From: a virus
Taxonomy: Duplodnaviria > Caudoviricetes
Length of the DNA stretch: 64,000 nucleotides
Virus record (IMG/VR): IMGVR_UViG_2816332589_000001
Coordinates: 72,929-136,928 of that record
Direction: 5' to 3' (one strand)
A model generated the notes under the pieces. It did no database searches, had not been told where the DNA came from, and saw only the letters and a program-made list of their open reading frames with translations. Below are positions 18,922 to 60,532 of the stretch, piece by piece; the first letter of the stretch is position 1; each line of letters begins with the position of its first letter. The position numbers and the translations under genes are program-made.

Positions 18922-19008
18922 GGCTGTGCCTCCGATGGTTGGTTGGGAGCGTTCGTTGGTCCCGCTCGCTCGTGCGGACCAACAAGGAAAACTGTACACC
19001 GTGTCCGG
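18922..19008 (-). promoter_or_regulatory. Conserved box plus leader hairpin, copy A
   Basis: GGACACGGTGTACAGT-tttcct-TGTTGGTCCGC-ACGAGCGA-GCGGGACCAAC-GAACGCTCC...GGAGG-ATG. Confidence 0.85.
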
Positions 19009-19103
19009 CGCGTGGGGGTAGGTCAGGCTCGGGATTTCCCGCTCCCGTGCTACCCCGCACCGGAGGGGGCCGGGCCGCCGCAGAAGGACGGCCCGGCGGG
19101 TGC

Positions 19104-19916
19104 TTACAGAGCGGCGGCGGCGCGGAGCTGGTTGTCCATCGAGCCCCACACCGTCAGGTTGACCGGCGCTTCCGTGTAGAGCAGGTGCAGGTCCACGTCC
19201 ACCACGTTGTCCACGAACAGGCTCACGGTGGTCAGGCCGTACCCGTGCCGATCGTAGGTGTCCCCAGGGCGCAAGCCAGGAGCGGCGGCCCGCATCTGCT
19301 TGGCGAGCGGGCCGTAAACGGGGTGCTTGCGGCGCGGGTCGCGGTTGTCGGTGCGGATGGCGCGCAGCACCGTACGGGCCTGTTCGACCGTCAGACGCCG
19401 GAAGACGATGTGGGATGCGGCGTACTCGGGGGTGTCGTCCAGGTAGTCGCCGCGCGTGATCTTCGTGCTGTGCTCGACCTCGGCGTAGCTGCCGGGGACC
19501 TCCCAGGTGGTGAGCGCTTCGCCGTGGTACCAGCGAGTGCGTGCGTGGTCGGGGGCGACGCAGGCGAACTTGGCGGCTATCAGCCGGGTGCGGCTGACCT
19601 TGGCGTGCGCTTCTTCCAGGTCACCGGTGACGAGTTCGGCGAGCGTGCGCCCGATGGCGTCGGCGGTCAAGGTGTCTGCGGTGGCGGACACCTTCCGGCG
19701 GGTTCCGTCGTCCAGGAGTGCCACGGCGTACACCTCGTGGCCGCGGATACCGGCGAAGTGGATGTTGTGCCCGCGGTGGGAGCGCAGGGAGCCGCTCATG
19801 CCGTAGTACGCGGCGTGAATCATCCAGTCGCGGCCCAGGATGCTGCGCGCGGCGCCGAGGACAGTGGAAGCGGTGAAGGGCAGTTCGCGGGTGTCGGTGA
19901 GAATGGTTCGAGACAC
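19104..19916 (-). CDS. Hypothetical protein behind leader copy B
   Basis: GAAAGG RBS plus GTG (VSRTILTD...). Confidence 0.7.
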   Translation of the reverse strand: MSRTILTDTRELPFTASTVLGAARSILGRDWMIHAAYYGMSGSLRSHRGHNIHFAGIRGHEVYAVALLDDGTRRKVSATADTLTADAIGRTLAELVTGDLEEAHAKVSRTRLIAAKFACVAPDHARTRWYHGEALTTWEVPGSYAEVEHSTKITRGDYLDDTPEYAASHIVFRRLTVEQARTVLRAIRTDNRDPRRKHPVYGPLAKQMRAAAPGLRPGDTYDRHGYGLTTVSLFVDNVVDVDLHLLYTEAPVNLTVWGSMDNQLRAAAAL

Positions 19917-20001
19917 GGGTGTGCCTTTCTGGTTGATGGGAGCGTTCGTTGGTCCCGCTCGCTCGTGCGGACCAACAAGGGAAACTGTACACCACGTCCG
20001 G
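19917..20001 (-). promoter_or_regulatory. Conserved box plus leader hairpin, copy B
   Basis: Nearly identical to copy A over about 65 bp. Confidence 0.85.
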
Positions 20002-20045
20002 CCATGGTGGGGGTGGGGCCCGACGGAAGTCCCGGGCCCCGCGCG

Positions 20046-20065
20046 GGGTGTTCCCACGGTGAACA
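20046..20065 (-). promoter_or_regulatory. Quasi-palindromic site TGTTCACCGTGGGAACACCC, copy 2
   Basis: Exact match to 7630-7649. Confidence 0.55.
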
Positions 20066-20081
20066 GCGGGCCGGGCTACGG

Positions 20082-21158
20082 CTACTTCGCCGGCGGGTAC
20101 GCCAGCAAGTGACCAGGCCACGCCGTGTCAGGCTCAACGCGCCAACCAGCTGCCCGCAGAACCCCTCCTGCGCGCTCCCGCTCCTCAGCATCATCCGTGC
20201 CGATCTCGCTCAGACAGACACCGGGCGCCTTCTCGCCCGAGGGTGCCACCGCGCTCACCATGAGCCCGGTCTCCTCACACAGGTAGCTCCCCTTACCGAT
20301 CGACTCTCCGTACCTGACCAGGCGAAGCCCAGCGTCGGCGAGCAGGGCGATCGCGGCGTCCACGTCCGCGTGCCGCCGCCACTCGGGGAAGCGCCCGACC
20401 GCCGGCGTGGTGCTCTTCGGCACCCACTGCACGTGGTACAGGTCCTCCTCCGGCAGAGAGTAGGCCACCATGCGCCCCGTACTCTCCACCTCGTCGTACA
20501 GGAGCACGTTCGCAACGTCCACCAAGGCATCTATCCGCTCGTACTGAACCAGCGGGCCGTAACCGGTCACTTCGCGCACTTCCCTGCGCAGCCACGCCAG
20601 CCCGTCACCAAGGATCTCGTCCGCGCGCTCCAGGGCATCCCACAGCTTCGGCGCAGTGGCCATGCAGGCATCGGCGAGGATGTGCCGCCGCTCGGCATGC
20701 ATCGCTTCGGCCGCGGCTTCTTCCTCGGTGTCCGCCGTCGCCACGTGCACCCGGGTCCACGAGTCCATGACCAGCCACGGCGCGGTGACGGGAATGTCGG
20801 AGGCGACCGGCGCGAACCGGGGGCTACTGGTGTCGTGCGGCCGGTCGTCCACGAACACGTCCGTACGGCCGGGCACGCTCGTCACCGCGAACCCAGCGGC
20901 GGTGAGCCGTTCAACGATCTGCGCCTTGTACTTCTCGCGGCCGAGAGCGGGCCCGTGCGTCCAGACCGGCCGGGTGGGCGTACCGCCGTGCCACCGGACG
21001 AACATGCGGCGCGGCTCGACGGTATCGAGGGATTCGACGCGGAACCCCTCGTGCACCACGCCGGGTACGTACTCCGGCAGGGAGCGGGCGAGCAGCGTCG
21101 TGACCCGGGCAGCCAGGTCTACGGAGTGAAGCGGAGCGACGCGCGGTTCAGTGGTCAT
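20082..21158 (-). CDS. Hypothetical protein
   Basis: AGGAG RBS before MTTEPRVAP. Confidence 0.7.
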   Translation of the reverse strand: MTTEPRVAPLHSVDLAARVTTLLARSLPEYVPGVVHEGFRVESLDTVEPRRMFVRWHGGTPTRPVWTHGPALGREKYKAQIVERLTAAGFAVTSVPGRTDVFVDDRPHDTSSPRFAPVASDIPVTAPWLVMDSWTRVHVATADTEEEAAAEAMHAERRHILADACMATAPKLWDALERADEILGDGLAWLRREVREVTGYGPLVQYERIDALVDVANVLLYDEVESTGRMVAYSLPEEDLYHVQWVPKSTTPAVGRFPEWRRHADVDAAIALLADAGLRLVRYGESIGKGSYLCEETGLMVSAVAPSGEKAPGVCLSEIGTDDAEERERAGGVLRAAGWRVEPDTAWPGHLLAYPPAK

Positions 21159-21525
21159 CGGGAGACTCCTGATCAGTACGGAAAGGGAAGGCAAGACGGG
21201 GCCGCAGCAGGCGCAGGCGGGACCGCCACGGCGTTCGGGACACGACGCGCACCACGGCGGCCACCGTGGACGCGTCGAGCCCTTCCGCGGGCACCTCGAC
21301 GGCCACAGGCGGCCGGTGCGGGGCGCGCGGGCGGATGACGATGAGCAGTTGGCCGGAGCGGGTGGTGGGCGCCGACACGGCGATGCGAGTGCGGCGGGTT
21401 TCGACGGTGCCGCTCGGCTCGACGCGCCCACCGAGGAGCCGGGCAAGCTCGTACCGCAGGGCGTCCGCGCGCAGCACAGCCTGCACGCGGTCCGCCCCCG
21501 GCCACAGAGCCGGCCGGTCACCCAT
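21148..21525 (-). CDS. Hypothetical protein
   Basis: Overlap-coupled with both neighbours. Confidence 0.55.
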   Translation of the reverse strand: MGDRPALWPGADRVQAVLRADALRYELARLLGGRVEPSGTVETRRTRIAVSAPTTRSGQLLIVIRPRAPHRPPVAVEVPAEGLDASTVAAVVRVVSRTPWRSRLRLLRPRLAFPFRTDQESPDDH

Positions 21526-21811
21526 CGGTCAGGCTGGGCGTGCCGCCGGGGAACGCCGCCAGATAGGCCAGATGCTCACGGTGAAACTGAGTGATCTCCG
21601 CGTCGGTGAAGCGGCGCCCGACCGCGGCCGCGCACTCCCGGGCGAGGAGAAACCGGCCGTGCAGCCAGCGAAGCCGGGACTCCGGCGGCCACGCGGCCGT
21701 GGGCCACACGACGGCCCAGTCACGCCCGGCCTCGACGAGCGCGGTTGCGTACTCGCCGAACTCCCGCATCATGATGTCGCCGAGCTGGCCGCGCTCCTTC
21801 TCGTTCGACAC
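21518..21811 (-). CDS. Hypothetical protein
   Basis: GGAGG RBS, GTG start 2 nt after the upstream stop. Confidence 0.6.
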   Translation of the reverse strand: MSNEKERGQLGDIMMREFGEYATALVEAGRDWAVVWPTAAWPPESRLRWLHGRFLLARECAAAVGRRFTDAEITQFHREHLAYLAAFPGGTPSLTDG

Positions 21812-21813
21812 GG

Positions 21814-22452
21814 CTACGCCTCCGACGGGGCTGCGGCGAGTACGAACACGTGAAGGCACGTCACGAGCGACGGCAGACCTGCATTCCGCCATCCCTCAGC
21901 GTCGTACCGGCTGTACCGCACGTAGACCCGTCCCGCGGCCTCGTCGTACCGCACCCGGACGCGGTCATGCTCGGCGACAATCCCCGACAGCACCTGCGCG
22001 GCCTCCGCCGCGGTGATGACGCCGGGAATGTCGTATGCCGCGTCCTCGTCGTGCGCCGCGACCAGTTCCCGCACCGGCACGAGCAACCCCGAACTCTGAT
22101 GCTCGGTGACGTACTGCGCGCAGTCGTGCAGGGGCGGGAACGCGAGCAGCGTCCGGCCCGGCAGGGTGGGGCCCGGGTCGGCGGGCACGAACCGCTGCCG
22201 CGCGTCCCACTTCTCGACGGCCCGGCCCAGGGCCGCGCGCACCTCGGCGTCGGACCACCAGCCGGTGCCGTCGTCCTGGTCGTCGTTCAGCCCGTCGTAC
22301 CGGGACGGCACCCATGACCCGTTGGTGCGGGTCCACACGTCCCCGGTGTGCGTCCACACGTAGCGGTCGCCATCGGTGAAGAACAGTGGGGCGGACGGCG
22401 GGGGAAACAAGGCCGACTGCACGACCGGGGCGTTCAAGGACATGGTGGACAC
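21814..22452 (-). CDS. Hypothetical protein
   Basis: GGAG RBS; FFTDGDRYVWTHTGDVWTRTNGSW. Confidence 0.65.
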   Translation of the reverse strand: MSTMSLNAPVVQSALFPPPSAPLFFTDGDRYVWTHTGDVWTRTNGSWVPSRYDGLNDDQDDGTGWWSDAEVRAALGRAVEKWDARQRFVPADPGPTLPGRTLLAFPPLHDCAQYVTEHQSSGLLVPVRELVAAHDEDAAYDIPGVITAAEAAQVLSGIVAEHDRVRVRYDEAAGRVYVRYSRYDAEGWRNAGLPSLVTCLHVFVLAAAPSEA

Positions 22453-22582
22453 GGGGGGATCTCCAAGCGGTGAGTACGGGTACGGCGGGGCGCGGTGCGC
22501 CCTGCTCACGGCCGTGACGGGCACGGCCGAGGGGAGGGAGCAGCGGGCCGGCCGGGGCGGGGACGGGCCGCCCCGGGCGGGG

Positions 22583-23029
22583 TCAGCGAAGGACGAACGA
22601 GAGCCACGCGGGCACGTGCAGCGGGCGAACGGACCGCTGGTTGGCGGAGAGCCGCAGTTCCTCGGCCAGCTCCCCCAGCTCGGCGCCCGACGCCTCGAAG
22701 TCGTCATGGCCACCGACAAGGCTCAGGGCTTCGGCTCGGGACGGCTCGGTGCGGAACGCGGACACGGTGAACACGCGGAAGCGGATGGCGGCGGAAGACC
22801 AGCCACCAGGCTCGACGCGGCTGTTCATGCTCGTGCTGCCGAACACGATCCGGTCGCCCCACTGGAGATCCGCGCCGGTCGGCGGAGCCCAGGCAACCCC
22901 GTACGGGGGCGGAGCCTCGATCAGGCGGCGGTGAGCGTCGCTGGCGCTGCGGGGGACGTAGAAGGCGGACACGCGGGGGATGCTGGTCACGGGATGCTCC
23001 AGGAGAGGGACGCCGGGGCGCGCGCTCAC
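22583..23029 (-). CDS. Hypothetical protein
   Basis: Array orientation; followed by the repeat hairpin. Confidence 0.55.
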   Translation of the reverse strand: MSARPGVPLLEHPVTSIPRVSAFYVPRSASDAHRRLIEAPPPYGVAWAPPTGADLQWGDRIVFGSTSMNSRVEPGGWSSAAIRFRVFTVSAFRTEPSRAEALSLVGGHDDFEASGAELGELAEELRLSANQRSVRPLHVPAWLSFVLR

Positions 23030-23051
23030 ACGCCCCGGCCGGATGGCGGAC

Positions 23052-24137
23052 TCAGATGCGGAACAGCGCCTCGGCCACGGCGCGGCGACGCTCCCCGTCG
23101 GAGCCCAGCGGGAAGTACCGCACCGGGCCGGCCGTCCCGTCCTCGGCGACGCGCAGGACCTCCACGGCCCCGTACGGGCCTTCCACGAGCGGCGGCGTCA
23201 CAGCGAACAGGTACGTCGCGGAACCAATGCGGCGGGCCCACTCCCACCCGCTCTCGGGCATCGGCTGACGCATCCCGACGACGAACAGCCCGTACGCCCG
23301 TGCGGCCTCCACCAGGGCGCGCCGGACCTCGTACAGAGCCTGATACGGGATGGCGCGCCGCACGGCCGTCGTGAACTCCGTCATGGCCTTGTCCAGGGCC
23401 CGCCCGTCGCCCGTGCCGTTGATGGCTGCGCCGAGCGTTCGCAGGGCTTCCAGACCGCTGAGGAACGCGCGGTCCCAGGCGCGGCGCTCCGCAGACGCGA
23501 TCCATGTGCGCTGCTCGGCAGGGTCCTCGAACCGCTTACCGACCCTGCTGCCGCACTCCGAGGTGAGGAGCACGACGGCCCGCACGGCGGGGTGGTCCAT
23601 CGTGGCGCCGTCCGGCTCATGCAGGAACCGGGACACGGCGTGCTCCACATCGGCCAGCAGCGCCCATTCAGCACGGTTCTTCGCGTGCCGCACTGCGGCC
23701 TCAGCGTTCGCTAGTGCCGCATCGAACGGGCCGCGCCGGTCGGCGGAGCCCTGCTCGGGGTGCAGGGACGTCAGAACGCGTTCCAGAGCGACCAGGGTCT
23801 CCTCACACGCGCGGTCCTCCGCAGCGCGTACGGCGGACTGCCCGGCGGTGATCAGCGAACGCATCGGCTCCACCCGGGCCCGGGAGTAGTTCGGCCCGGC
23901 GATGTACTCCCACGGGCCCACGGCGCGCCAGCCGTTGGCCTGCAACAGGTCGTCGGGACCGATGCGGCGGCTGTTCGGGACGTACGGAGCGGTGAACCGG
24001 GCTATGGGTTCCGGGCTCTGCTGGGGAACGATGATCGTCACCCAGTTCTCGCGGCGGGCGCCCTCCTTACGGCTGGTGACCTGTACGGCGTGCTGGAACT
24101 CGGCGAAGTAGCGGACGGCGGGTACGGCGGTGCTCAT
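23052..24137 (-). CDS. Hypothetical protein
   Basis: GGAG RBS before MSTAVPAVRYF. Confidence 0.7.
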   Translation of the reverse strand: MSTAVPAVRYFAEFQHAVQVTSRKEGARRENWVTIIVPQQSPEPIARFTAPYVPNSRRIGPDDLLQANGWRAVGPWEYIAGPNYSRARVEPMRSLITAGQSAVRAAEDRACEETLVALERVLTSLHPEQGSADRRGPFDAALANAEAAVRHAKNRAEWALLADVEHAVSRFLHEPDGATMDHPAVRAVVLLTSECGSRVGKRFEDPAEQRTWIASAERRAWDRAFLSGLEALRTLGAAINGTGDGRALDKAMTEFTTAVRRAIPYQALYEVRRALVEAARAYGLFVVGMRQPMPESGWEWARRIGSATYLFAVTPPLVEGPYGAVEVLRVAEDGTAGPVRYFPLGSDGERRRAVAEALFRI

Positions 24138-24235
24138 GGCGGAGTTCTCCAAGGGGCTTACGGAATGTGGATGGGGGCGGGTGGAGCACTGGGCCGGCGG
24201 GGCGCGCCGGACGGGCGCGCCCCGGGCCGGGCAGA

Positions 24236-24829
24236 TCAGTTGGGGGTAACGCTGGAAGCGATCGCGAGCACGACGGCCGTCAGCAGCGGCTCGATCGCGG
24301 CGTAGTCGGGGGCGTCGGCGGGGATGTACGCGTACGTGCCGGTGCCCGCGGGGAGGCGGACCCAGATCACGCCGGTCTCCGTCTGGCTCATCTCCCAGTC
24401 CCGGGGGAACCTCTTGATCGACGGGGCATCCACGGTGCGCTGCCCCGGCCCCCACGGTCCGGGCGCCGTGTCGTCCATCTCCGGCAGGGGCACGACCGCG
24501 TTGGACGATGGGCCCTTGGTACCGGCCAGCAGGTACGCGCGGCCCTGCTCGAACGGCATCTCGCCGTCGCGCACCGGGCGCCCGGGAAGCGGGTCATCGG
24601 CGCCAACGGACGCCGGGGTGAACAGCGGCACTCCAGCCTCTGCGAGAAACGGCGGGTGGGTGAACATCTTCCGTATCTCCTCGTCGGTGAAGGCGGCCGG
24701 GCAATCGGCGCAGCACGTCCAACGCCCTTCCTCGGACCGGGTGTGCGCCGTACCGAGCACGGTGACGCGGTCACCGGCCGCGAACGCGGCGGGCACGTGG
24801 GGCATGACGGACGGGAGCAGCAACGACAC
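24236..24829 (-). CDS. Hypothetical protein
   Basis: GGAG RBS plus GTG; followed by the repeat hairpin. Confidence 0.6.
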   Translation of the reverse strand: MSLLLPSVMPHVPAAFAAGDRVTVLGTAHTRSEEGRWTCCADCPAAFTDEEIRKMFTHPPFLAEAGVPLFTPASVGADDPLPGRPVRDGEMPFEQGRAYLLAGTKGPSSNAVVPLPEMDDTAPGPWGPGQRTVDAPSIKRFPRDWEMSQTETGVIWVRLPAGTGTYAYIPADAPDYAAIEPLLTAVVLAIASSVTPN

Positions 24830-25022
24830 GGGAACTCCAGAGCAGTGAGAAGAACGAGGCGGGCGGATGATGGCCCGCAGGGCTCGCTTACGGCGCGCCC
24901 CGCACACGGCCGCGACGGCGGGCGGCACGGCCGAGAGCAGGAAGCGGCGGGATGAGGGCTCCGTCGGCCCCCGCACCGCCCCGCGACACGGCGCCGCGGG
25001 ACGATGCGGAAGCGACGGCCGA

Positions 25023-25793
25023 CTAGCGGAAGAACCTGACGACTTCCGACGCGGTCAGTGGTCCCGCTCCCCTGCGCTCGCCGTCCACCTCGCTTTGGAC
25101 GAAGAACCGCAGCCGGGTGTGTGCGGGGCAAAGCGGGTTCTCCAACCGCCGCCGGACGATCCACGAGATGCGATGGGTGTCCGTGTCCACGCGAAGCGCT
25201 CCCCGCGCGTCCGGGTAGGGCAGGGTCCGCATACCTGCCTTGCTCAGCAGGCCCGCCAGGTGCGCCATGTCCTTAGCCACGGCATCCGGCGCGTACTCCG
25301 GGCTCTGCGGCTCACCCATGTACGAGCGGCACGCCACGGTGTAGCGGCGCCCGTGGTGCGATGCCGGCTGGCTGCACATCTCGCACCGAGGATTCGCCGG
25401 AGTGTCCGGGCGCGGCTCGACATCGAACTTGTCGCACGCCGTGGCGTTCGGGTTGTGGTGCTCGCTTTCCCACTGGCCGCACGTTCCGCACGTCGGCGTC
25501 CGGGGCGTAGGAAGCGGCCGGGCCTCTTGCACCATCCCGTGGAACGTGCCGGACGCGTAGGTGAACCCGACGGTCCTGCTCACGTCGTCCATGGAGAGCG
25601 CACCGCCGCACTCAATGGCGTTGATCAGCATGGCCCGCAGCAGCGCACCGGACATGCGGCGCGGGTTGGGCGTACCGGGCACGAGGGCGGACGCGGGTGA
25701 CGCAGTGACGGAGTACGCCGCGAACGTCACCTCGGCCACGTCGGTGAGCGGCCGGAACATCGCGGACCGCTCATCATCACGAACAGCAGACAC
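25023..25793 (-). CDS. Hypothetical protein with two CxxC...H...C motifs
   Basis: CGTCGQWESEH...C and CEMCSQPASHH...C; GGAG RBS. Confidence 0.65.
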   Translation of the reverse strand: MSAVRDDERSAMFRPLTDVAEVTFAAYSVTASPASALVPGTPNPRRMSGALLRAMLINAIECGGALSMDDVSRTVGFTYASGTFHGMVQEARPLPTPRTPTCGTCGQWESEHHNPNATACDKFDVEPRPDTPANPRCEMCSQPASHHGRRYTVACRSYMGEPQSPEYAPDAVAKDMAHLAGLLSKAGMRTLPYPDARGALRVDTDTHRISWIVRRRLENPLCPAHTRLRFFVQSEVDGERRGAGPLTASEVVRFFR

Positions 25794-26083
25794 AGGAACT
25801 CCCAGAAGACGGAGGGACTGAAGAGACCGGAGAAACCGGGGCAGACACCAGCCGGACGGGCGCGCACGAGGGGTTGCCGTGAGACCAGAGAGCAACGCTC
25901 TGACCAGCGAAAAGGAACATTCGTGGAACCGGTGAGACCGTTCTACGCGTGCGCGCGGGGGCTGGGGTCGCATCGGTGGTCCGGGCGCCGTACTGCGACC
26001 GCCGGGGGGCAGCTGCCGCAGTACGGGGCGCGGAGCACCGTGCCGGCCGGGGGCACGCCGGGGTGGGCGCGCCCCCGGGCGGG

Positions 26084-26851
26084 TCAGCCGCGCTTGATAC
26101 GGACGGTGATCCGGTTGCGGTAGCGGTTGAAGCGGTGGCGGGTGCGGAACTTGAAGTTCTGCCAGTTCGGCGTACGGCGCCACTGGAGGTAGGCGACGCG
26201 GGCGCGGGTCAGGGGGCGCAGTACGGCGGGTGTCGCGGCGTCGTAGCCGTTGTAGCCGTTGTAGACCTCGCGGAGGATCGCGGCGGCCGCAACGCGTGGT
26301 GAGGCGGCGGAGGGGGCAATGACGCCGGGCATGGAGGTCCAGCCGTCGTTGGCGTACAAATCCCTGGTGGCCATGAACCAGTCGCCGTCAAAGCCCTGGT
26401 AGGCGTAGTACTCCTCGCGGCCGTTGGTGATGGTGAGCCCGTAGCTCTCGCTCCCGACCGTGCTGGTGTACACATCAAGGTGTCCGGCCCGGATGATTTC
26501 TGCCTCCGTCCGGCGGAGGGCGGCGCGGTCCAGGCTGTGGCGGGTGTGGAAGGCGGCTACCCGCCGCTCCCCTGCGGCCCACCGGTCGCGGTCTTCGTAC
26601 TGGTAGCCAGCAGCTACGGCCAGATCGAGGATCTTGCCCGCGTGGGTGATGCCGTCTTCGTCTTTGGGGGCGAGTGGGGTCCACACGGTGGCGCGGATGT
26701 TGGTGTACCAGGTGTCGTCTTGGTCCGGTTCGGTGTCGGTCATGGTGACCGTGTCGATTCGGCCGTCGGGGTGCTGCGTGATCGTCAGGTACAGGGGGTC
26801 GGCGTTCTCGACGGCGGGGGTGTCGGTGGGCTTGTCCAGGCTGACGGGCAT
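26084..26851 (-). CDS. First gene of the leftward array, hypothetical protein
   Basis: Behind leader copy C; AAGGG RBS. Confidence 0.75.
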   Translation of the reverse strand: MPVSLDKPTDTPAVENADPLYLTITQHPDGRIDTVTMTDTEPDQDDTWYTNIRATVWTPLAPKDEDGITHAGKILDLAVAAGYQYEDRDRWAAGERRVAAFHTRHSLDRAALRRTEAEIIRAGHLDVYTSTVGSESYGLTITNGREEYYAYQGFDGDWFMATRDLYANDGWTSMPGVIAPSAASPRVAAAAILREVYNGYNGYDAATPAVLRPLTRARVAYLQWRRTPNWQNFKFRTRHRFNRYRNRITVRIKRG

Positions 26852-26939
26852 GAGTGTCCCTTTGGTGGTTGGTGTGGAGCGTTGGTGTTGGCCGGATCGC
26901 TCGTTCCGACCAACAAGCAGAACTGTACACCACGTCCCG
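26852..26939 (-). promoter_or_regulatory. Conserved box plus leader hairpin, copy C
   Basis: GGACGTGGTGTACAGT...TGTTGGTCGGA-ACGAGCGA-TCCGGCCAACA-CCAACGCTCC; TTGCGC lies 16 nt upstream of TACAGT. Confidence 0.85.
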
Positions 26940-26998
26940 CGATGCGCAACACCGGGTCCATTTCTCCCGGCCCTATAGGGGGTATGACTACCGCCCTT

Positions 26999-27116
26999 CG
27001 GACGTGGTTGTCAGTTTGTGCCGTGGTCATGTAGTGTGGTGCTCGCACCGAACGGCGCAGACGGAACGAGCACCCGTACCGCGCCGAACGCTCCCAACCA
27101 GCCTTAGGGGACCTCT
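26999..27116 (+). promoter_or_regulatory. Rightward promoter (TTGTCA-N18-TAGTGT) overlapped by a box variant, plus divergent leader copy F
   Basis: GGACGTGGTTGTCAGT at 27000; CGGCGC-ag-ACGG-AACGAGCAC-CCGT-acc-GCGCCG-AACGCTCCC at 27053-27095. Confidence 0.7.
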
Positions 27117-27446
27117 GTGTCTGCTGCCGCCGAACGCCGCGCCCGCCGCCGCAACGCCGCCGCCGTACTCCGCAACCGCCGCCGGGTGAACCGGACGCAC
27201 ACCGTGAAGCCCTTCCTGCGCTTCCTCGGATACGAGCCGGAGTTCGTTGACCGCTACGCCTCTCCGTTCGGCAAGCACGTGGTGAAGGCGTACCGCGCCC
27301 AGCACGACGGTGCCGACCCGGCCACCCGCCTCAAGCGCATCAACGGCCGCCTGCGCCCCGTGTACGTGTACGCCCCCGGCGACCCGGCCCTGACCGTCGC
27401 GCTCAACACCTACAGGCGCACCGCTGAGTACGCCCCCGCCGCGTAG
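27117..27446 (+). CDS. Small basic protein, first gene of the rightward array (resembles C-termini of phage antirepressor-like proteins)
   Basis: FGKHVVKAYRAQHDG..P...INGRLRPVYVY...D pattern; family link is tentative. Confidence 0.6.
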   Translation: MSAAAERRARRRNAAAVLRNRRRVNRTHTVKPFLRFLGYEPEFVDRYASPFGKHVVKAYRAQHDGADPATRLKRINGRLRPVYVYAPGDPALTVALNTYRRTAEYAPAA

Positions 27447-27513
27447 CCCTTCCCCCACCCCCCGGGGCGCGGCACCCGCCGCGCCCCACCCTCCCCCGAT
27501 CGGAGAACCCCTG

Positions 27514-27918
27514 ATGAAGCTGCCCTTCACCTGCCGTGCCCGCGCCGCTGTGGCTGCCGCCGTGGCGACCGGACTGCTTGCCGTGGCCGCGTCGCTCACC
27601 ACCTTCTACGACGGCGTGAACGCCGGGGCGACCGTCGGCACGCCCGGGTGTTCCGTCGGTGTCGAGTGGCGCGGTGACCCGGGCGTGTTCGGCTCGTGCA
27701 CCGGCACGGACCCGGACGCCGGGGCCGACCAGGGCGACGAGATCGTGACGGCGTACAACGACGGTTTCCTGGACGGACAGGCGGACGTGCACGAGGGCGG
27801 CGGCCGTGACGCGCACGAGGCCGGCATGGGGGCGGGCGCCAAGTCGGGTGATGCGGCCGTGACCGCGTACAACGACGGATTCCTGGACGGACAGGCTGAC
27901 GCGCGAGTGCGCCGCTGA
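27514..27918 (+). CDS. Putative secreted protein with duplicated VTAYNDGFLDGQAD motif
   Basis: Hydrophobic N-terminus; 14-aa exact internal repeat. Confidence 0.65.
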   Translation: MKLPFTCRARAAVAAAVATGLLAVAASLTTFYDGVNAGATVGTPGCSVGVEWRGDPGVFGSCTGTDPDAGADQGDEIVTAYNDGFLDGQADVHEGGGRDAHEAGMGAGAKSGDAAVTAYNDGFLDGQADARVRR

Positions 27919-27958
27919 CCCGCTGGTGGGGGAGGGGCGCTCCGGGGCCCCTTCCCCA

Positions 27959-28044
27959 CCGGACACGGTTCACAGTTTTCCCTGTTGGCCCGCACGAGCG
28001 GGCGGCGCCAACACCACGCTCCAACCCAACCGAAAGGCATACCC
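27959..28044 (+). promoter_or_regulatory. Conserved box plus leader hairpin, copy D
   Basis: GGACACGGTTCACAGT...TGTTGGCCCGC-ACGAGCGG-GCGGCGCCAACA-CCACGCTCC...GAAAGG. Confidence 0.8.
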
Positions 28045-28812
28045 GTGCCCGTCATCGACGCCGCGTTCTACCCGCTGATCATCACCAACCGGCCCACTGA
28101 GTACCCGTACGCGGCTCCGCCCGTCGGTACCGACATGAGTGCGCTGCGTCTGCTGCCCGCGTCCGAGGTGCGCGCCGGTGACCTGGTACTTGGCGCCTAC
28201 GACGGCCCGGTGTCCCCCGGCAAGCTGCGCACCGCCAACCAGTCCGCCGCCGCGTTCACCGCGCTGCCCCTGCCCATGCACGGCGTCATCTGCCTCGATG
28301 GCGAGACACCGCTTTGGGAGCGCGACGAGCCGACTTTGGTCATCCCCCGCGAGTACCGCCCGTCCGCCCCGTACGCCGTTGGCGACCTCGTGGAGCGCCC
28401 CGTTCTGTACACCCCGACGGACTACAGCGGCCGGTACCGGCCCGGAGAGACCGTTGCCGTCCTCCAGCGCGGCACCGTGACCGCCGTGGAAGACGGCTCC
28501 GTGAGCATCCAGTGGCTTGGCGACTGGCTCACCTGCGAAGACCCGGCGACCGGGTTCCGCCGCGTCGATCCCGTGCGCATCGAACGGGAGCGCGCCGTGT
28601 CCGGCTTCGCGGTAGGCGACCGCGTGACGCTGCCCGGCGGCACGTCCACGGGCGTGGTGATGGAACTGTGGCCGCGCTGGCTCGACGGCCGCACCACGGC
28701 GCGCGTGTGGTGGCCGCCCACCTCGGCTTCGGACAACAGCCGTGGCCGCCACCGGATGTACGAGCCGTACCACATCGAGCACGCCGTTCCCGCCGCGTCC
28801 GCCACCCGCTGA
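28045..28812 (+). CDS. Hypothetical protein with SH3/KOW-like (Y/F)AVGDxV repeats
   Basis: VRAGDLV, YAVGDLV and FAVGDRV segments. Confidence 0.7.
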   Translation: MPVIDAAFYPLIITNRPTEYPYAAPPVGTDMSALRLLPASEVRAGDLVLGAYDGPVSPGKLRTANQSAAAFTALPLPMHGVICLDGETPLWERDEPTLVIPREYRPSAPYAVGDLVERPVLYTPTDYSGRYRPGETVAVLQRGTVTAVEDGSVSIQWLGDWLTCEDPATGFRRVDPVRIERERAVSGFAVGDRVTLPGGTSTGVVMELWPRWLDGRTTARVWWPPTSASDNSRGRHRMYEPYHIEHAVPAASATR

Positions 28813-29287
28813 CCCCATGCCGGCCCGGGGCGCCCCGGGCCCCCTTCCCCGCTCAACTCCCACCAGAAAGGCGCCATCAGCCATGCCCGGATACGCCCCC
28901 GCCACCGTCGAAACCGTCTCCATCCCCCTGCCGAACGTCACCGTCCGCCGCCCGCTCAAGCGCGGCGACGACTACCGCTTGGAACTGGGCGCGGTCATCG
29001 CCCGCGGCTCCACCCTGGCCGCCGCCCGCGCCGATCTGGCACGCCAACTCGGCCTCACCTCCGAGACCGTGCACACCGACCCCGGGTTCGCGCGGGCCGA
29101 CGACAACGGTGACTTCCTGGTCGTGCTCGATCGCCCGTGGGGACTCGACTCGTACCTGATCACCGACGCGGGCCACAGGCTCATCGGCACCAGCAACCGC
29201 GACCGCACCCCCGCCGAGGACGCCGCCGCGAACCGGGGTTTCACCGTCATCCCGCCGCGCCGCTGACCCCATGCCGGCCCGGGGCGC
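28806..29287 (+). repeat. 28-bp direct repeat flanking one gene
   Basis: CCGCTGACCCCATGCCGGCCCGGGGCGC at 28806-28833 and 29260-29287; the core CCCCATGCCGGCC recurs near 30308 and 33933. Confidence 0.85.
28883..29266 (+). CDS. Hypothetical protein
   Basis: GAAAGG RBS; lies between the 28-bp repeats. Confidence 0.65.
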   Translation: MPGYAPATVETVSIPLPNVTVRRPLKRGDDYRLELGAVIARGSTLAAARADLARQLGLTSETVHTDPGFARADDNGDFLVVLDRPWGLDSYLITDAGHRLIGTSNRDRTPAEDAAANRGFTVIPPRR

Positions 29288-29357
29288 GGAGGCCGCGCCC
29301 CGGGCCACAAACCCCGCCGCTCTGGCACCCTCCCCGAACTCCCGAAAGGAACAGCTC

Positions 29358-30287
29358 ATGACCACGGCCCCGGCCCCACTGCACCCCACCGGCACCGACG
29401 GGACGCCCCCGGGCATCCAGCTCTTCACCGTCGAAGGAACCGCGTACGGCCCGTACGTCGGGCTCCCCACGTCGGACACGTGGGGGCCGTACTCCGCGCA
29501 CCTGTTCACCCGCGCGACCGCCGAACTGATCGTGAACGATCTGCACCGCGATGAGAGCAGCCTCCGGGCCGCGTTCGATCCCGAGACCGGCACGCTCACG
29601 TTCACCGACGAAGACGACGAGATGGAGCCCGAGACCGTCATCCCGGACGCGTACGGCCGGTACCTGATCGGCGGCCTGTGGCCGTGGAATGACTGGGACG
29701 ACAAGGACATCCCGCACACCGCCGGGCAGGCCGCGTTCGCGCGGGGCGCGGTCGAGTACCGGGAGGCTGACGCCTCCGCGTCGCTTCCCGAACCGCTGGA
29801 TGCCCTCTACCAGCGGGGCCGCCAGGAGGCGCAGCTGCTCACCCGCGAACGCGCGGAGCACCGGGGCGTGCTCTTCGACATCGACCCGTCCCGTACGCCG
29901 CTGATCGTCCGTTCCCGCCCGACGAACCACCACTTCGCGGCTCTGCCGCCCGGGGCGTACGAGTCGGCCGCCCGGCCCATGCTCGCCCGCGACGTGCGCG
30001 CCGGTGACCTGGTGGTTGCGTCGTTCGCGTCGTTCCCCACCCCCGGCCGCACGACTCAGGGGACGACGTGGGTGAAGTCCCCGTACGTCGCCGACCCACG
30101 CCCGGAAAACCCCGACTGCCGGTGCACACCGTGCCGCATAGGCCGGGAGGTGTGCGGGCCCGGTCCGCGCGTCGCGCTCTCCGCGCCCGAGAACACCCAC
30201 TGGGGCGCGGAGTGCGATGTGTGGGAGGCGGACGAACCGGTGTTCGTCATCCCTGCCGCGCTGCTGCTGCTCCCCGTCTCCGAGTGA
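29358..30287 (+). CDS. Hypothetical two-domain protein sharing a domain with 28045-28812
   Basis: GAAAGGA RBS; ARDVRAGDLVV...WEADEPVFVIP. Confidence 0.7.
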   Translation: MTTAPAPLHPTGTDGTPPGIQLFTVEGTAYGPYVGLPTSDTWGPYSAHLFTRATAELIVNDLHRDESSLRAAFDPETGTLTFTDEDDEMEPETVIPDAYGRYLIGGLWPWNDWDDKDIPHTAGQAAFARGAVEYREADASASLPEPLDALYQRGRQEAQLLTRERAEHRGVLFDIDPSRTPLIVRSRPTNHHFAALPPGAYESAARPMLARDVRAGDLVVASFASFPTPGRTTQGTTWVKSPYVADPRPENPDCRCTPCRIGREVCGPGPRVALSAPENTHWGAECDVWEADEPVFVIPAALLLLPVSE

Positions 30288-30352
30288 CCGCCCGCCGTGT
30301 CCCCGGGCCCCATGCCGGCCCGGGGACACGGGCCCCGCAGAAGGAACCCGCC

Positions 30353-31236: not shown

Positions 31237-31287
31237 CCGAGGACCGTGATCAGCCACTTCTACGACGCCTGACCCCTTGGAGTCTCC

Positions 31288-32025: not shown

Positions 32026-32032
32026 CCACGCT

Positions 32033-55708: not shown

Positions 55709-57700
55709 TCACGGAGCACTGACTGCGCCCGCGGCCGGGACCGGCTCGGCAGCCTCCCGCGCTGCGATGGGGCGGCGGGCGACCGTCCGGAACGCCATGG
55801 CCCGGCCCTGCTTACCGGCCTCCTCGACCCAGCCCTTCTTCCGCCACTGGCTGAGCGGCCCGTTCACCGACGAGCGCGCGGCGAACTGGGGCAGGTCGAG
55901 CGCCACCAGGTCGTCCACGGTGATGCCCCGCGGGCCGGCCTTCTCGATGGCCTGCCACAGGGCCGCGTGCCGTTCGTCGGCTATCTCCGAGCCGTCCGGG
56001 AACGTGGGCACCGCCCGCAGTACCGGCCGCGGCAGCGGGGCGCCCTCTCCCGGGCCGCCCGACGGCGGCGTGGGAGGCGTCGGAGGCGGCGGGTCGTCCT
56101 CCGGCCCCACCGCGCTCTGCGGGTGCTCCCTGGCCCCGTTCTTGGCCTCCGCGGTGGCGTACCGGTGCACGGTCGCGCCGATCTCCTCGTCGGTCATCCA
56201 GAACGCGCGGGAGACCACCGGCACCGGGTGCGCGCGATCCCAGCGCAGGAAGTACCCGGGGCCTTCCAGCTCGTCCAGGCACCAGCCGTCGCCGTACGCC
56301 CCGGGACCGAAGATCAGGTTGGAGGTCGTGCTCTCCTTCGCGCCGAGCCCGATGCGCACCTGGTACTGCTGGCGGCCGTCGGTGTTCCCGCCGAACACGC
56401 GGTTCGACGGCGACTGTGTGGCGCACACCAGGGTGATGCCGACGAACCGCGCCACCTGGAGCAGCGACTCGATCAGCGGGGCGGCCGACGGCACCTGCCG
56501 CATCAGCTCGGCCAGCTCATCGATGAAGACGAACCAGGCGGGCCCGTGTTCCCCCGGCACCCACTTCTTGACCGGCCGACCCAGCTTCCGGCCAAGGTCC
56601 GCGAGGTACCGGCCGCGCCGCTCGACCTCCGCCCAGATGAACCGCAGCAGGGCCAGGGCCTCGGCCGGCGTCGCGGCGAAGCCCCGCGCACAGCTCCGCC
56701 ACGGGCCGAGCTCGACCGCGCCCGGTTTCAGGTCGATCAGCAGCACCTCGGCGTCCTCGCATGCGACGGCGTACGCGAGGAGCACCGCCTGGAGCGAGGA
56801 CTTGCCGTTGTCCGAGGCACCGCCGATCAGCACGTGGTTGTACAGCATGGGTACCGTGACCGGCTGGCCAAGGGCGTCCATGCCAAGGACCGCGGGCTCC
56901 TTGCACGTCGAAGTGGACGGGCCCGGCCACGCCAACGGGGAGGCCAGCGGGTCGGACTCGTACAGGCAGGCCACCAGCTCGTTGTCCTTCTCGCCCTTGG
57001 CCAGGCGCAGCTTGCCCGGCAGGCCGAGGTTCGCGGCGAGCTGGTCGCGGCGCGCGATGACCTTGTGCGGTGCGGTGTCCCGGCCGGCGGGCAGTACGAC
57101 GACCGCGCGCCATCCGAAGCGGGTGTACTCCAGCGCGGTCACGTCCACCGCGGGCACCGACAGCATCGCCACGAGGGCTTGCATGAGGGCCGTCTCCTCG
57201 CGGGTGGCGCCGGTCAGGCCCGGGGCGAGGGTGTCGGTGCCCAGGCCCTCGGCGGTGACGCCTGCCTTCGCGGCCTTCACTTGGAGGGACAGCTGCTCGC
57301 GGCGCGAGCGTACGAGCCACGGCACGTACGCGGCGTACGCGCCGCCGGTCGTCAGGGCGCTGGCTATGAGGGACGGCACCGACGGGCCCAGCCCGGCGCC
57401 GATCCACGCGTCCGCCATCACGGCCATGCCGCCCGCGCCGGCCGCCGCGATGCCCTTGTTCTTGTACTTCAGCCCTCCGGCGACCAAGGCACCGGAGGCG
57501 GCCGTCGCCAGGCCGTACGCGCCGTGCTCGGCGAGGCTGACACCACCGAGGTGGTGCAGCCACGACAGGCCCGTCAACCCCGCGATCGCGGCACCGGGCG
57601 CGAGTTCGTAGCGGCGGCGGACGCAGCACCGGTACACCTTGCCGAAGGCGCTGGCGGTCCCCAGCGCGGCGCGCGCCAGGTTCGAGTCGTGCGGAGGCAC
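55709..57700 (-). CDS. traB: FtsK/SpoIIIE-family conjugative DNA translocase (Streptomyces TraB-like)
   Basis: N-terminal TM helices, HVLIGGASDNGKS Walker A, IDLKPGAVEL, FIDELAEL Walker B, ATQSP, and a C-terminal winged helix after a Pro-rich linker. Confidence 0.9.
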   Translation of the reverse strand: MPPHDSNLARAALGTASAFGKVYRCCVRRRYELAPGAAIAGLTGLSWLHHLGGVSLAEHGAYGLATAASGALVAGGLKYKNKGIAAAGAGGMAVMADAWIGAGLGPSVPSLIASALTTGGAYAAYVPWLVRSRREQLSLQVKAAKAGVTAEGLGTDTLAPGLTGATREETALMQALVAMLSVPAVDVTALEYTRFGWRAVVVLPAGRDTAPHKVIARRDQLAANLGLPGKLRLAKGEKDNELVACLYESDPLASPLAWPGPSTSTCKEPAVLGMDALGQPVTVPMLYNHVLIGGASDNGKSSLQAVLLAYAVACEDAEVLLIDLKPGAVELGPWRSCARGFAATPAEALALLRFIWAEVERRGRYLADLGRKLGRPVKKWVPGEHGPAWFVFIDELAELMRQVPSAAPLIESLLQVARFVGITLVCATQSPSNRVFGGNTDGRQQYQVRIGLGAKESTTSNLIFGPGAYGDGWCLDELEGPGYFLRWDRAHPVPVVSRAFWMTDEEIGATVHRYATAEAKNGAREHPQSAVGPEDDPPPPTPPTPPSGGPGEGAPLPRPVLRAVPTFPDGSEIADERHAALWQAIEKAGPRGITVDDLVALDLPQFAARSSVNGPLSQWRKKGWVEEAGKQGRAMAFRTVARRPIAAREAAEPVPAAGAVSAP

Positions 57701-57717: not shown

Positions 57718-57771
57718 GTGACGTGACGTGAGCGGCGGAGAAAACCCCTGTTCAGGGGGTCGTCACGTCAC
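57718..57771. promoter_or_regulatory. Inverted GTGACGTGACG repeats upstream of traB
   Basis: GTGACGTGACG 57718-57728 and CGTCACGTCAC 57761-57771 enclose CCCCTG-TT-CAGGGG. Confidence 0.6.
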
Positions 57772-57916
57772 ACCGCGACGGGGAGAGGAAGCCGGAAGGG
57801 AGCACGGCGGTACGAGGCATGGTTATGCCCTCCTGGTTGTTCGGAGCGATGGCCGGGCGCTTGCTCGTCGCGCCGTAGCCGGTATGAAGTTCTGGCAGAA
57901 GCCTACCCGCCGATGA

Positions 57917-58734: not shown

Positions 58735-58832
58735 GCTCTCTCCCGAAGCACGGCCCCCTGCGTGACTAAGGTGTCGGCGGGCGCCGACGCAGGGAGCCGT
58801 GCACCGGGTAGACGGAGCGGCCTGCGGATTCG

Positions 58833-59441
58833 TTACACCGCGGCGTACGGGTCCGGCAGCGGGACGGCCGGCACCCAGCCATCCGGGCCCTCGTACTCCA
58901 TGCCCGATGTGGCGTGCACGGTCACCGTGTAGTTCTCGCCGTCCCGGCGCAGGACGAGGTACTGCCCGTGAGTGTCGATGATGACTCCCGGGTGTCCGTC
59001 GTGTCGGACCCGGAGCCCCAGGCCCACGCGGACACCGATCCGCTGCTCCAGCCGGTAGTACGAGCGGATGTGCTCCAGGTCGGAGTGCTGCCGCTCGGAC
59101 GCCGCGAACAGCGCCTCGCACGCCCTGCGGTGGCAGCGCGCGGTCTTCGCCACGTCGTGCGCGTCGAGGGGCAGGTCGTCGCAGAGCATGATGCTGCTCG
59201 GGTCGCACGCGGCGGCCAAGGCGCCGAGCTGCCCGCCGACACGGGTCGTGAGGTGGCTGGAGACCACTGCCATGTGCGCGGCCTTCGCTGAGCGGGTGTC
59301 GGGCCGGTCGTAGAAGGAGGCATCCCGGAGCATGGCCGTCAGCTCTCCGCCGGAGACGGCCGGGGCGCCGTGCGGCACGCCGTTCACCTCCGAGTAGTGC
59401 ACAGGCGCCGGGCGCCGTTGCATCGGCGTCAGCGCGCTCAC
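58833..59441 (-). CDS. Hypothetical protein
   Basis: GTGA coupling; LEHIRSYY...GLRVRHDGHPGVI. Confidence 0.65.
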   Translation of the reverse strand: MSALTPMQRRPAPVHYSEVNGVPHGAPAVSGGELTAMLRDASFYDRPDTRSAKAAHMAVVSSHLTTRVGGQLGALAAACDPSSIMLCDDLPLDAHDVAKTARCHRRACEALFAASERQHSDLEHIRSYYRLEQRIGVRVGLGLRVRHDGHPGVIIDTHGQYLVLRRDGENYTVTVHATSGMEYEGPDGWVPAVPLPDPYAAV

Positions 59442-59650
59442 TGACCGTCTCCCCACGCGGCGTCCACCAGATCCGGGTCCGGCTGAACCAGGGCGGCAGC
59501 CTCCTCGAAACCAGCTTCCCGCAGGCGTGCCGCGATCTCGGTATCCCGCAGCGCGAGGAGCGCGTCCGCGTACGTCGGCACCGACTCGGTGCGCAGCCCC
59601 GATTCCTCGAACAGCTCGGCCGCACGCTGCCGGGCGGACTTCTCATCCAT
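59438..59650 (-). CDS. Small hypothetical protein
   Basis: GAGGAG RBS; overlaps the stop of the RusA-like gene. Confidence 0.6.
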   Translation of the reverse strand: MDEKSARQRAAELFEESGLRTESVPTYADALLALRDTEIAARLREAGFEEAAALVQPDPDLVDAAWGDGQ

Positions 59651-60203
59651 GCGTGTTCTCCTCCCCCTGGTCGATGATGACCAGCGACATCCTGATGTTC
59701 GCACCGCTCTGACGCTCTCCAGCACGCGGATCAACGCCGGTGACCACCGCAGCGTTATCGTCCTCGAACACGCCCGCATCCTGAAGGCCGTCCACCGCGG
59801 CCTTCGCCGCCAGCGACCAGTTCGACGGGTCGAAGACGCGCGTGCGCATCTTCGGCTTCACGACGTAGACCACGCGGGCCCGGACCAGCCGCGGGACACG
59901 CTGCGCGCGGGCGAGCACAGCAGCCGTCTCCCGTATGGAGGCGGCGACCTTGCGCTCCTCCGCCCAGTGCCAGCCGCGCACGGCATTGGCGTTGATCAGC
60001 TCCATGTCGGGCAGGTCGAGCACCCAGTGCCGGGCGGCGCCGACCTCCCGGACGGCGTCCCACTCGACGTACGCCGCCGCACTGGAACCGCCAGCTCGGG
60101 AACGGGCCGCGGCCGGCTTCTTCTTCGGCGCTCGCGCCGCGCCGAGCTGGGCTCGCAGGCCGGGATAGCGCGCGGCCTCCTTCACGCTGATACGGAACGC
60201 CAC
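59643..60203 (-). CDS. RusA-like Holliday junction resolvase
   Basis: DPSNWSLAAKAAVDGLQDAGVFEDDN motif; AGGAGG RBS. Confidence 0.8.
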   Translation of the reverse strand: MAFRISVKEAARYPGLRAQLGAARAPKKKPAAARSRAGGSSAAAYVEWDAVREVGAARHWVLDLPDMELINANAVRGWHWAEERKVAASIRETAAVLARAQRVPRLVRARVVYVVKPKMRTRVFDPSNWSLAAKAAVDGLQDAGVFEDDNAAVVTGVDPRAGERQSGANIRMSLVIIDQGEENTHG

Positions 60204-60204
60204 G

Positions 60205-60480
60205 TCACGCCTCCTGGTCGGGGTGGCCATCGTCGCCCGACGCGTCGGCTTCCGTCTCCGCGTGGACCCGCTGCTGCACCTCGGCCATGTGCTGGTCGAA
60301 GCCCTCCTGGTGGGCTTGGTGGTCGTACCGCCGCGGGTCCATCCAGTCCCCTGCCGAGCAGGCCGCGGCGTAGAGCTTCGTATCGCCGCCGAACAGGGTC
60401 CGGTGGGTGCCGACCGGTTCGAGCAGCAGGCGGTGTTCCCTGCGCACCTCGTCCATCAGCGGATCGTCGGTGTAGTGCAT
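60205..60480 (-). CDS. Small hypothetical protein behind leader copy G
   Basis: GAAGGGA RBS. Confidence 0.65.
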   Translation of the reverse strand: MHYTDDPLMDEVRREHRLLLEPVGTHRTLFGGDTKLYAAACSAGDWMDPRRYDHQAHQEGFDQHMAEVQQRVHAETEADASGDDGHPDQEA

Positions 60481-60532
60481 CTGCTGTCCCTTCGGAGCGT
60501 TGTGGTCCCGGCGCTCGCTCGTGCGCCGAGCC
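60481..60532 (-). promoter_or_regulatory. Leader hairpin copy G (no upstream box)
   Basis: CTCGGCGC-ACGAGCGA-GCGCCGGG-ACCACAACGCTCC-GAAGGGAC...ATG. Confidence 0.75.

Follow-up and report, generated by a model that had tools for sequence, protein, structure and literature searches.

The last 64 kb of the single 136,928-bp virus contig IMGVR_UViG_2816332589_000001 (70% G+C), referred to here as the window, carries a repeated leader element that stands directly before the ribosome-binding sites (RBSs) of a set of non-structural genes. In this element, a hairpin of freely varying stem sequence presents a fixed 8-nt loop, ACGAGCRA, and is followed by a single-stranded CGCUCC box; the same design, with other loop and box sequences, recurs in two sister lineages. 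The element is read tentatively, and at a little less than an even chance, as an operator that acts in cis on the mRNA; it would be bound by a trans factor specific to the lineage, probably an RNA-binding protein encoded by the phage, and that factor would control translation or mRNA fate of the non-structural genes. A first-pass annotation of the window had proposed a cis-regulatory RNA with two alternative folds by way of a pseudoknot; of that description, the repeated sense-oriented leader, the covarying stem, the conserved loop and box and the lack of an Rfam family stand, while the pseudoknot and the two folds are not supported.

Evidence for the hairpin comes from 41 aligned copies (40 complete copies and the hairpin of a split copy, J), which were gathered with a covariance model built on nine copies (R1) from five replicons of one lineage (lineage 1), namely the window's own (G000), the Streptomyces plasmid NZ_CP107821.1 (W01), an integrated 124-kb provirus (G001), a 39-kb viral fragment (G002) and a draft Streptomyces genome (G025). 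Among these copies, all 11 stem pairs have changed on both sides. The covariation score is 0.370, as compared with 0.113 ± 0.013 in shuffles, none of 500 of which scored as high, and with 0.060-0.127 for slid partner columns; these figures come from an alignment fitted to the model and hence biased towards the structure, and variably placed bulges make many lower-stem cells look unpaired. When each copy is folded individually, 7-14 bp form around the loop in all of them, and the hairpin energy lies below that of 200 shuffles of the 5' arm (mean z = -3.66, with 39 of 40 copies below -2). The covarying stem claimed in the first-pass annotation is confirmed by these results.

The conservation of the loop and the downstream box, which had also been claimed, extends to every complete copy: none of the 40 departs from GAGC in the loop or from CGCUC in the box. 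At loop position 7, the pair counts give G for 25 copies and A for 15, with no pyrimidine in the aligned rows inspected. The box starts 11-18 nt after the end of the loop (median 15) in all 40, and a start codon with an RBS follows 11-29 nt after the end of the box (median 22) in the 35 copies for which a start was called by script, the other five being copies with short open reading frames (ORFs), weak RBSs or cut loci. The length of the 3' arm trades off against that of the linker (r = -0.69, n = 40), so that the loop-to-box distance varies less than either of the two lengths that make it up.

A variation on this spacing is seen in copy J, which lies upstream of the window at genome positions 70962-70987 (70978) on the (-) strand and has its box 81 nt after the loop. 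In the J leader, which is conserved in four replicons, an insert of ~65 nt closed by its own helix (GGUCUG/CAGACC) stands between hairpin and box and contains an invariant 16-mer, CTCACTCCGTCCATAG, in all four; once the closed insert is set aside, the loop-to-box distance is ~16 nt. This stretch (genome ~70830-70990, (-) strand) is the leader of a whiB/replication operon, and reads as a canonical hairpin, the conserved structured insert, the box, a further small hairpin and an RBS. Two other roles for loop and box were considered and rejected. For pairing with 16S rRNA, complements of just 6 nt were found in one Streptomyces 16S, which is the level estimated for chance (without a shuffle control), and sequestration of the Shine-Dalgarno sequence by the CUCC of the box appears, by reading, to be possible in some copies only. 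An intrinsic terminator scan of positions 18800-32200 returned three sites, none of them at an element, and the sequence after the hairpins is C/A-rich, not a U run.

No R1 match was found in six more distant plasmids (W02-W07), five of which also lack the J-leader 16-mer, and their intergenic regions were therefore inspected, revealing other loop and box sequences there; copy counts in these sister lineages come from a script that combines a pattern with folding, and not from a covariance model. In lineage 2 (W02, NZ_CP122459.1), the loop reads CACAGCGAA and the box CACACAC in eight copies, one of which precedes a homologue of gpD, a candidate protein described below. As a separate observation, the leader of an rrn operon in Streptomyces genome G003 (positions 1-237) holds AACACAGCGA in a hairpin (ACACAGCG AGGA CGCUGUGU), and the same 8-10 nt equal the lineage 2 element loop, possibly by chance. 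Lineage 3 comprises NZ_CP107769.1 (W04), pZL1 (NC_023316.1, W06) and two further Streptomyces contigs, and its element has the loop RUGGCAC and the box UCGAAACC, which starts 14-24 nt after the loop and is followed by an RBS. W04 carries 38 copies on one strand, 37 of them with an RBS and a start within 40 nt, and pZL1 carries 27, all on one strand; in both, almost all genes of the long arrays are preceded by an element. Two classes can be distinguished in lineage 3, the first promoter-linked (GGTAATGTT ... CTTGTTGG), with the same lower-stem start CTTGTTGG as in lineage 1, and the second placed directly after stop codons with the stem CCGGGGCGGCGG.

The design common to the three lineages is a fixed-loop hairpin, followed at a set distance by a fixed single-stranded box and then by an RBS. 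Because all three codes are found in Streptomyces hosts, a host ribosome or Nus factor cannot explain them, and a lineage-encoded partner can. Such constancy within each lineage, set against divergence from one lineage to the next in the same host genus, is what co-evolution with a partner encoded by the phage would be expected to produce.

In the window itself, the pattern ACGAGCR-N12-24-ACGCTCC is matched seven times where 0.05 matches are expected, and none of 100 shuffles contained seven. These are the seven copies (A to G) of the first-pass annotation, and inspection of the sequence at each coordinate found them at the places and with the readings given there: all are sense-oriented, with 13-24 nt and a purine-rich RBS between the end of the box and an ATG or GTG, and their stems vary while pairing is kept, as judged from sequence and folding. 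One detail had been misplaced, since the ACGAGCA loop assigned to the sixth copy belongs to the fourth (27066, (+) strand), and the sixth (32068) has ACGAGCGA.

Copy A (18942-18987, (-) strand) has the hairpin loop ACGAGCGA and the box AACGCTCC before an ATG at 18921, with an R1 score of 52.7 bits and a minimum-free-energy hairpin of 12 bp; before it, at 18990-19006 on the same strand, stands the putative promoter box GGACACGGTGTACAGTT, with an exact GGTGTACAGTT at 18990-19000. Copy B (19935-19980, (-) strand; 51.6 bits) consists of hairpin and box before a GTG at 19916, with a promoter-like box at 19983-19999, and copy C (26872-26918, (-) strand; 54.2 bits) has an 11-bp stem with one U.G pair, an ATG at 26851 and a promoter-like box at 26921-26937. 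On the other strand, copy D (27052-27098, (+) strand; 42.0 bits) carries the loop AACGAGCAC and the box AACGCTCC before a GTG at 27117, with a related promoter-like box at 27000-27016 and TAGTGT at 27032-27037. Copy E (27980-28026, (+) strand; 48.2 bits) has the loop ACGAGCGG and the box CACGCTCC, a GTG at 28045 and a variant of the promoter-like box, GGTTCACAGTT, at 27967-27977, and copy F (32054-32101, (+) strand; 55.2 bits) combines a perfect 12-bp stem and the box with a GTG at 32119 and a promoter-like box at 32034-32050. Copy G (60490-60536, (-) strand; 48.7 bits) has hairpin and box before an ATG at 60480 and is without a promoter-like box. It also illustrates how freely the stem changes, in that presumed orthologues, recognised by similar downstream genes in different replicons, have wholly different stems, an example being copy G when set beside the corresponding copies of W01 and G001.

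Over the whole replicon, R1 gave nine matches of 42-55 bits, the next best scoring 18 bits. Two of these nine strong copies, H and I (genome 64248-64295 and 66136-66182, (-) strand), lie just upstream of the window. All of the strong copies are sense-oriented and fall between 64 and 133 kb, in a region of small unknown genes and of genes for replication, recombination and transfer-like functions, with none in the half that holds the virion genes. The nine downstream genes examined include one ERF gene, one member of a PHROG of unknown function and seven without a match; in Pfam, ERF was again the single match, with none for eight of the nine.

Three variants were added by inspecting hairpins with the same loop, these being the split copy J, the weak but boxed copy L and the box-less copy K, so that nine strong copies and three variants precede about a dozen non-structural genes in the replicon; L and K are two members inside the window beyond the seven. 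Copy L (57839-57883, genome 130767-130811, (-) strand) has the loop ACGAGCAA and the box variant ATCGCTCC, is a weak R1 match (16.2 bits), and stands before a short ORF and an FtsK/SpoIIIE-like gene. Its putative orthologues in W01 (42.5 bits) and G001 (36.0 bits) precede a short ORF with a similar start, and the position before an FtsK/SpoIIIE gene was shown for the W01 counterpart only. Copy K (4122-4143, (+) strand) carries the loop ACGAGCAA at 4130-4137, is without the CGCTCC box, and precedes a 78-amino-acid gene (GTG at 4167) with a related promoter-like box, GGGACGTGGTGTGCACTAAGGT, upstream. Hairpins of this box-less type, with differing stems, also occur in G002 and W01, making three replicons in all. 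The K leader (4085-4170) is divergent from a gene at 3070-3789 ((-) strand) for an extracytoplasmic function (ECF)-type sigma factor (Sigma70_r2/r4).

According to the first-pass annotation, TACAGT precedes five copies; it does so for four (18990, 19983, 26921 and 32040), and the one at 27967 reads CACAGT. Copy D (27066) has its related box ~50 nt further upstream in addition to the TAGTGT hexamer. A conserved 17-nt box, GGACRYGGTGTACAGTT, is found at 18990-19006, 19983-19999, 26921-26937, 27961-27977, 32034-32050 and genome ~70995, and reads TTTGAYGTGGTGTACAGTT in G002 and G025. The box GGACRYGGTGTACAGTT has no -35 partner, and no room is left for a -35 element. A sigma-70 consensus scan of 18800-32200 returned no promoters, and therefore the TACAGT promoters, along with the transcription starts, are inferred from that hexamer. 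Possible roles for the 17-nt box are that of a compact promoter read by a non-standard sigma factor and that of an operator that overlaps a -10 element. The RNA element is separable from this box, as had been proposed for copy G, since G, H, I and L are without the box and D has it displaced.

The contig is a virus record with terminal repeats, i.e. a circular assembly, and is estimated to be complete. Among its products are a portal protein, a head protease and a minor tail protein, as well as an Erf recombinase, a DnaC-like loader and a replication-initiator-like protein; an ECF-type sigma factor and an FtsK/SpoIIIE protein are also encoded. When a 15.5-kb query was compared with a plasmid collection, the DNA relatives were only seven Streptomyces 'plasmids' of 119-133 kb, the best of them being W01, which is hosted by Streptomyces sp. 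NBC_00536 and matches with 81% identity over 12% of the query; the annotation of W01 includes ParA/ParB together with a phage capsid and a portal. In a phage collection, no DNA match was found to the 15.5-kb array or to one 92-nt element. Because virion genes are present here, the relatives are Streptomyces plasmids and W01 combines ParA/ParB with capsid and portal, the replicon is read as a Streptomyces phage-plasmid. The FtsK/SpoIIIE-domain protein (window 55709-57700, (-) strand) is of the kind that serves as the conjugative DNA translocase in Streptomyces, and its presence in one replicon with virion genes hints at two routes of spread. Outside the window, at genome 18470-35395 on the (+) strand, there is one ORF of 5,641 amino acids, whose W01 counterpart of ~5,250 amino acids is annotated as a DEAD/DEAH box helicase family protein. 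In W01, folE, queE and a 6-carboxytetrahydropterin synthase gene lie side by side (72283-74132), suggesting 7-deazaguanine modification of the phage-plasmid DNA.

Elsewhere in lineage 1, R1 matches number nine in W01, eight in G001, 4-6 in G002 and 7-10 in G025, and two further replicons of this lineage, on contigs of 133,113 and 135,536 bp, were recognised via gpD homologues only. The family is rare, with one positive among 151 sampled Streptomyces genomes under strict filters. A pattern scan of viral contigs yielded, among the matches listed, mostly single chance matches, and R1 scoring of 80 loci left two that were real. A search for orthologous loci with a single protein found nothing in genome contigs, a search with a protein alignment found two loci there, both of lineage 3, and the protein-based search of viral contigs found nothing.

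Action of the element as RNA is favoured on several grounds. Its sense orientation always follows that of the downstream gene, on both strands and near the RBS; covariation of the stem would be purposeless in a double-stranded operator; and the J insert is a closed domain whose folding would restore ~16 nt between loop and box, where the same motifs in double-stranded DNA would be 81 bp apart. In the proposed mechanism, loop and box jointly would form the operator, and its ligand would be a trans factor confined to this phage lineage, most likely an RNA-binding protein that the phage encodes. Translation initiation and/or mRNA fate would thereby be set at once for all of the non-structural genes, and in promoter-linked copies the hairpin may also cap the 5' end of the transcript.

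The only candidate for the trans factor, put forward as a lead and not as evidence, is gpD (27117-27446, (+) strand), the product of the gene after copy D. This protein of 109 amino acids has an arginine-rich N-terminus and no Pfam or PHROG match, and its gene is the first of the rightward array, with the element on its own leader. Homologues of gpD were found in lineages 1 and 2 only, and the loops of both share AGCGA. The AF2 model of gpD, with a predicted local distance difference test (pLDDT) score of 82.5, has an Arg-rich N-terminal helix.

Several points weigh against an mRNA operator read by a trans factor. The copies are related by duplication and by descent or orthology, so that the counts given above are not counts of independent events. 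The complementarity of loop and box (5 nt, or 4 nt with A at position 7) would also be explained by a self-contained fold. A test of strand asymmetry based on G.U pairs found the sense hairpin more stable in 18 copies and the antisense hairpin in 11 (p = 0.13), which gives no proof of the acting strand. No PDB structure matched the gpD model at E ≤ 0.001 (best E = 0.28), and its predicted fold, a helix plus a beta-hairpin, could equally be that of a DNA binder; among the PGAP features of the whole 132.6-kb W01 record, no RNA-binding protein is named. Action at the RNA level, the start sites and the direction of control (activation or repression), together with the existence and identity of the trans factor, are all inferred.

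An extension of the mRNA-operator reading is possible but doubtful: the elements may constitute a lineage-coded post-transcriptional regulon, in which loop and box serve as an 'address' on 10 to ~40 non-structural genes that is read by each lineage's own small RNA-binding protein, perhaps gpD in lineages 1 and 2. If true, this would be specificity of the N/boxB type acting on translation or mRNA fate and not on termination, and lineage-coded addresses could give co-resident phage-plasmids expression immunity or incompatibility. The three natural variants make post-transcriptional co-ordination of early genes testable and could lead to a new RNA-binding factor, and the set of elements offers possible compact, orthogonal leader tags for Streptomyces gene expression.

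The first alternative is the one put forward in the first-pass annotation, a self-contained pseudoknot switch resembling a riboswitch, in which GAGC(G) would pair with CGCUC, the lower stem would open and the two folds would gate the RBS or sense a ligand; it is considered improbable. The complementarity of GAGCG and CGCUC that it starts from is present (5 nt if loop position 7 is G, 4 nt if it is A), and linkers of 1-9 nt are indeed too short for the full stems of 8-14 bp, so that the full hairpin and the pseudoknot cannot coexist. However, four of the five pairs are invariant in 40 of 40 copies and thus beyond the reach of a covariation test, and the only pair that varies is G-C in 25 copies and an uncompensated A.C mismatch in 15; in W01, A stands at position 7 in all nine copies with a readable loop and the boxes are unchanged. 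The loop-to-box distance of ~15 nt and the trade-off between arm and linker are as expected if the upper stem and a fixed L3 matter, and the closed J insert leaves the box beside the hairpin, but the box-less K variant is conserved in three replicons. For a riboswitch in particular, the downstream genes are unrelated ORFans and form no metabolic set, and no Rfam riboswitch is matched. The strongest argument comes from the sister lineages, in which the same architecture is kept and loops and boxes are non-complementary, the longest loop/box complement being 1 nt in lineage 2 and 2-3 nt in lineage 3, as against 5 nt in lineage 1; pairing of loop and box therefore appears not to be part of the design common to the three.

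A second alternative, also judged unlikely, is a signal for RNA processing or stability, in which a loop-recognising endoribonuclease of phage or host would cut near the box and leave a protective 3' hairpin or a defined 5' end. T7 RNase III sites provide a model for processing that leaves protected message ends. Such a role would suit the intercistronic copies G, H, I and L, as well as the many lineage 3 copies that lie directly after a stop codon and have long GC-rich hairpins without a U tail, and promoter-linked copies would set the hairpin at the 5' end; the fixed loop-to-box distance would suit a ruler-type cut, but the tight link to RBS and start codon is not demanded by processing alone. 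RNase III needs longer duplexes than the 8-14 bp of these stems and no specific loop, and there is no known nuclease candidate.

A third and still less probable alternative is antitermination of the nut type. The lambdoid nut site is a two-part RNA site in early transcripts, composed of boxA and boxB and read by N proteins, with a loop specificity that varies among related phages. Here, the hairpin would take the part of boxB, with gpD or a similar arginine-rich, N-like protein as its ligand, and CGCUC that of boxA. The element likewise joins a hairpin of lineage-specific loop and free stem to a single-stranded box, most copies are promoter-proximal, and gpD heads the rightward array with an Arg-rich N-terminus and the element on its own mRNA. 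The CGCUC core equals the first five bases of lambda boxA (CGCUCUUA; consensus CGCUCUU(U)A), but in all 40 copies it is followed by C and a varied A/C/G-rich sequence with no U run, so that the U-rich part of boxA is absent. The sister-lineage boxes are entirely different in the same host genus, where a host NusB/E site should be common to all, and the hairpin stands 5' of the box, the reverse of lambda. The number and placing of copies also argue against this alternative: antitermination needs one site per operon, whereas 10-12 copies occur per genome, and in lineage 3 27-38, before nearly every array gene; the box lies 11-29 nt from the start codon in every called case, and no U-tailed terminators stand at elements in the arrays.

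Least probable of all is a site that acts at the DNA level, whether a two-half-site operator (GAGCG/CGCTC, ~21 bp centre to centre), a cruciform or single-stranded hairpin promoter or priming site, or a cassette recombination site, since, even though GAGCG and CGCTC form an inverted repeat about two helical turns apart and the sense hairpin is not significantly stabler than the antisense one, the stem covariation around the first motif would have no role in a double-stranded operator, the J leader separates the motifs by ~81 nt with a structured insert between them, the sister-lineage motifs are not inverted repeats, each copy points the same way as the gene after it, whichever strand and whichever side of the array centre it lies on, and copies K, G and L are incompatible with a single replication origin. 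Integron attC sites lie next to an integrase and have the core sites RYYYAAC and then GTTRRRY. An attC-like site was rejected by eye, with no integrase search made, as the promoter-linked copies have GTTGG ahead of CCAAC, opposite to the attC order, and neither motif is present in the remaining copies.

With regard to known RNA families, the element had been put forward as undescribed, and in agreement with this Rfam 15 gave no match at gathering score in the whole window. At E ≤ 5, no match was found in 26800-28100, which holds three copies, and at the J leader only a chance match to CRISPR-DR23 (E = 3.7) was returned. No description of the element was found in the literature searched, a search that covered articles without their supplements. 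The element is thus considered undescribed so far, its nearest kin in kind being the multi-copy leader or start-associated elements of phages.

The small H-type pseudoknot riboswitches, such as preQ1-I, SAM-II and guanidine-III, resemble the element in size (~45 nt), in a hairpin loop complementary to a 3' tail and in their position next to the RBS. The element differs from them in that it has no Rfam match (E ≤ 5), its pseudoknot is without covariation support, about a dozen copies stand before unrelated genes in one mobile element, and the sister lineages are without the complementarity. Another comparison is offered by the operators of the MS2 and PP7 coat proteins and by T4 RegA, where a site by the translation start is bound by a phage protein, which in the case of RegA acts on many early messages. 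As in these systems, a hairpin or short site lies near a translation start; there is no homology, and the start codon lies outside the hairpin of the element, 30-55 nt downstream of it. With the lambdoid nut site, the element has in common a single-stranded box and a hairpin of the loop-recognised type, a free stem, a lineage-specific loop and the CGCUC core. Unlike nut, it has the two parts in reversed order, 10-38 copies as opposed to 2, an obligatory proximity to the RBS, a loop of 8 nt and not 5, and a box whose sequence follows the lineage and not the host.

The closest parallel in copy number and placing has been described in Cluster K mycobacteriophages, where the start-associated sequence (SAS), a 13-bp sequence (GGGATAGGAGCCC) that contains the Shine-Dalgarno core, is found 3-7 bp ahead of the start codon (Pope et al. 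2011, PMC3203893). In these phages, 11-19 copies per genome stand in one orientation before the starts of genes in the non-structural half, with a sequence that is subcluster-specific; no function was known for SAS, for which the authors proposed a factor of host or phage origin, either RNA or protein (PMC3203893). The associated extended SAS (ESAS) consists of 17-bp inverted repeats of conserved sequence, whose departures from that sequence do not support RNA pairing, and for which the authors favoured DNA binding (PMC3203893). As far as the main account of SAS allows comparison, the element is like it in its many copies, single orientation, restriction to non-structural genes and lineage specificity, and unlike it in that the box lies 11-29 nt upstream of the start with a separate RBS after it; no sequence similarity is apparent from that account, which the figures and supplementary alignments could refine. 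From ESAS, on the same account, it differs in stem arms that vary and compensate around a fixed loop. Start-adjacent repeats have thus been known in actinophages since 2011, with SAS and ESAS, and their mechanism is still unknown; the element described here represents a cleaner case, because it combines a covariation-supported hairpin, an invariant loop and box and a fixed spacing with three natural specificity variants in one host genus.

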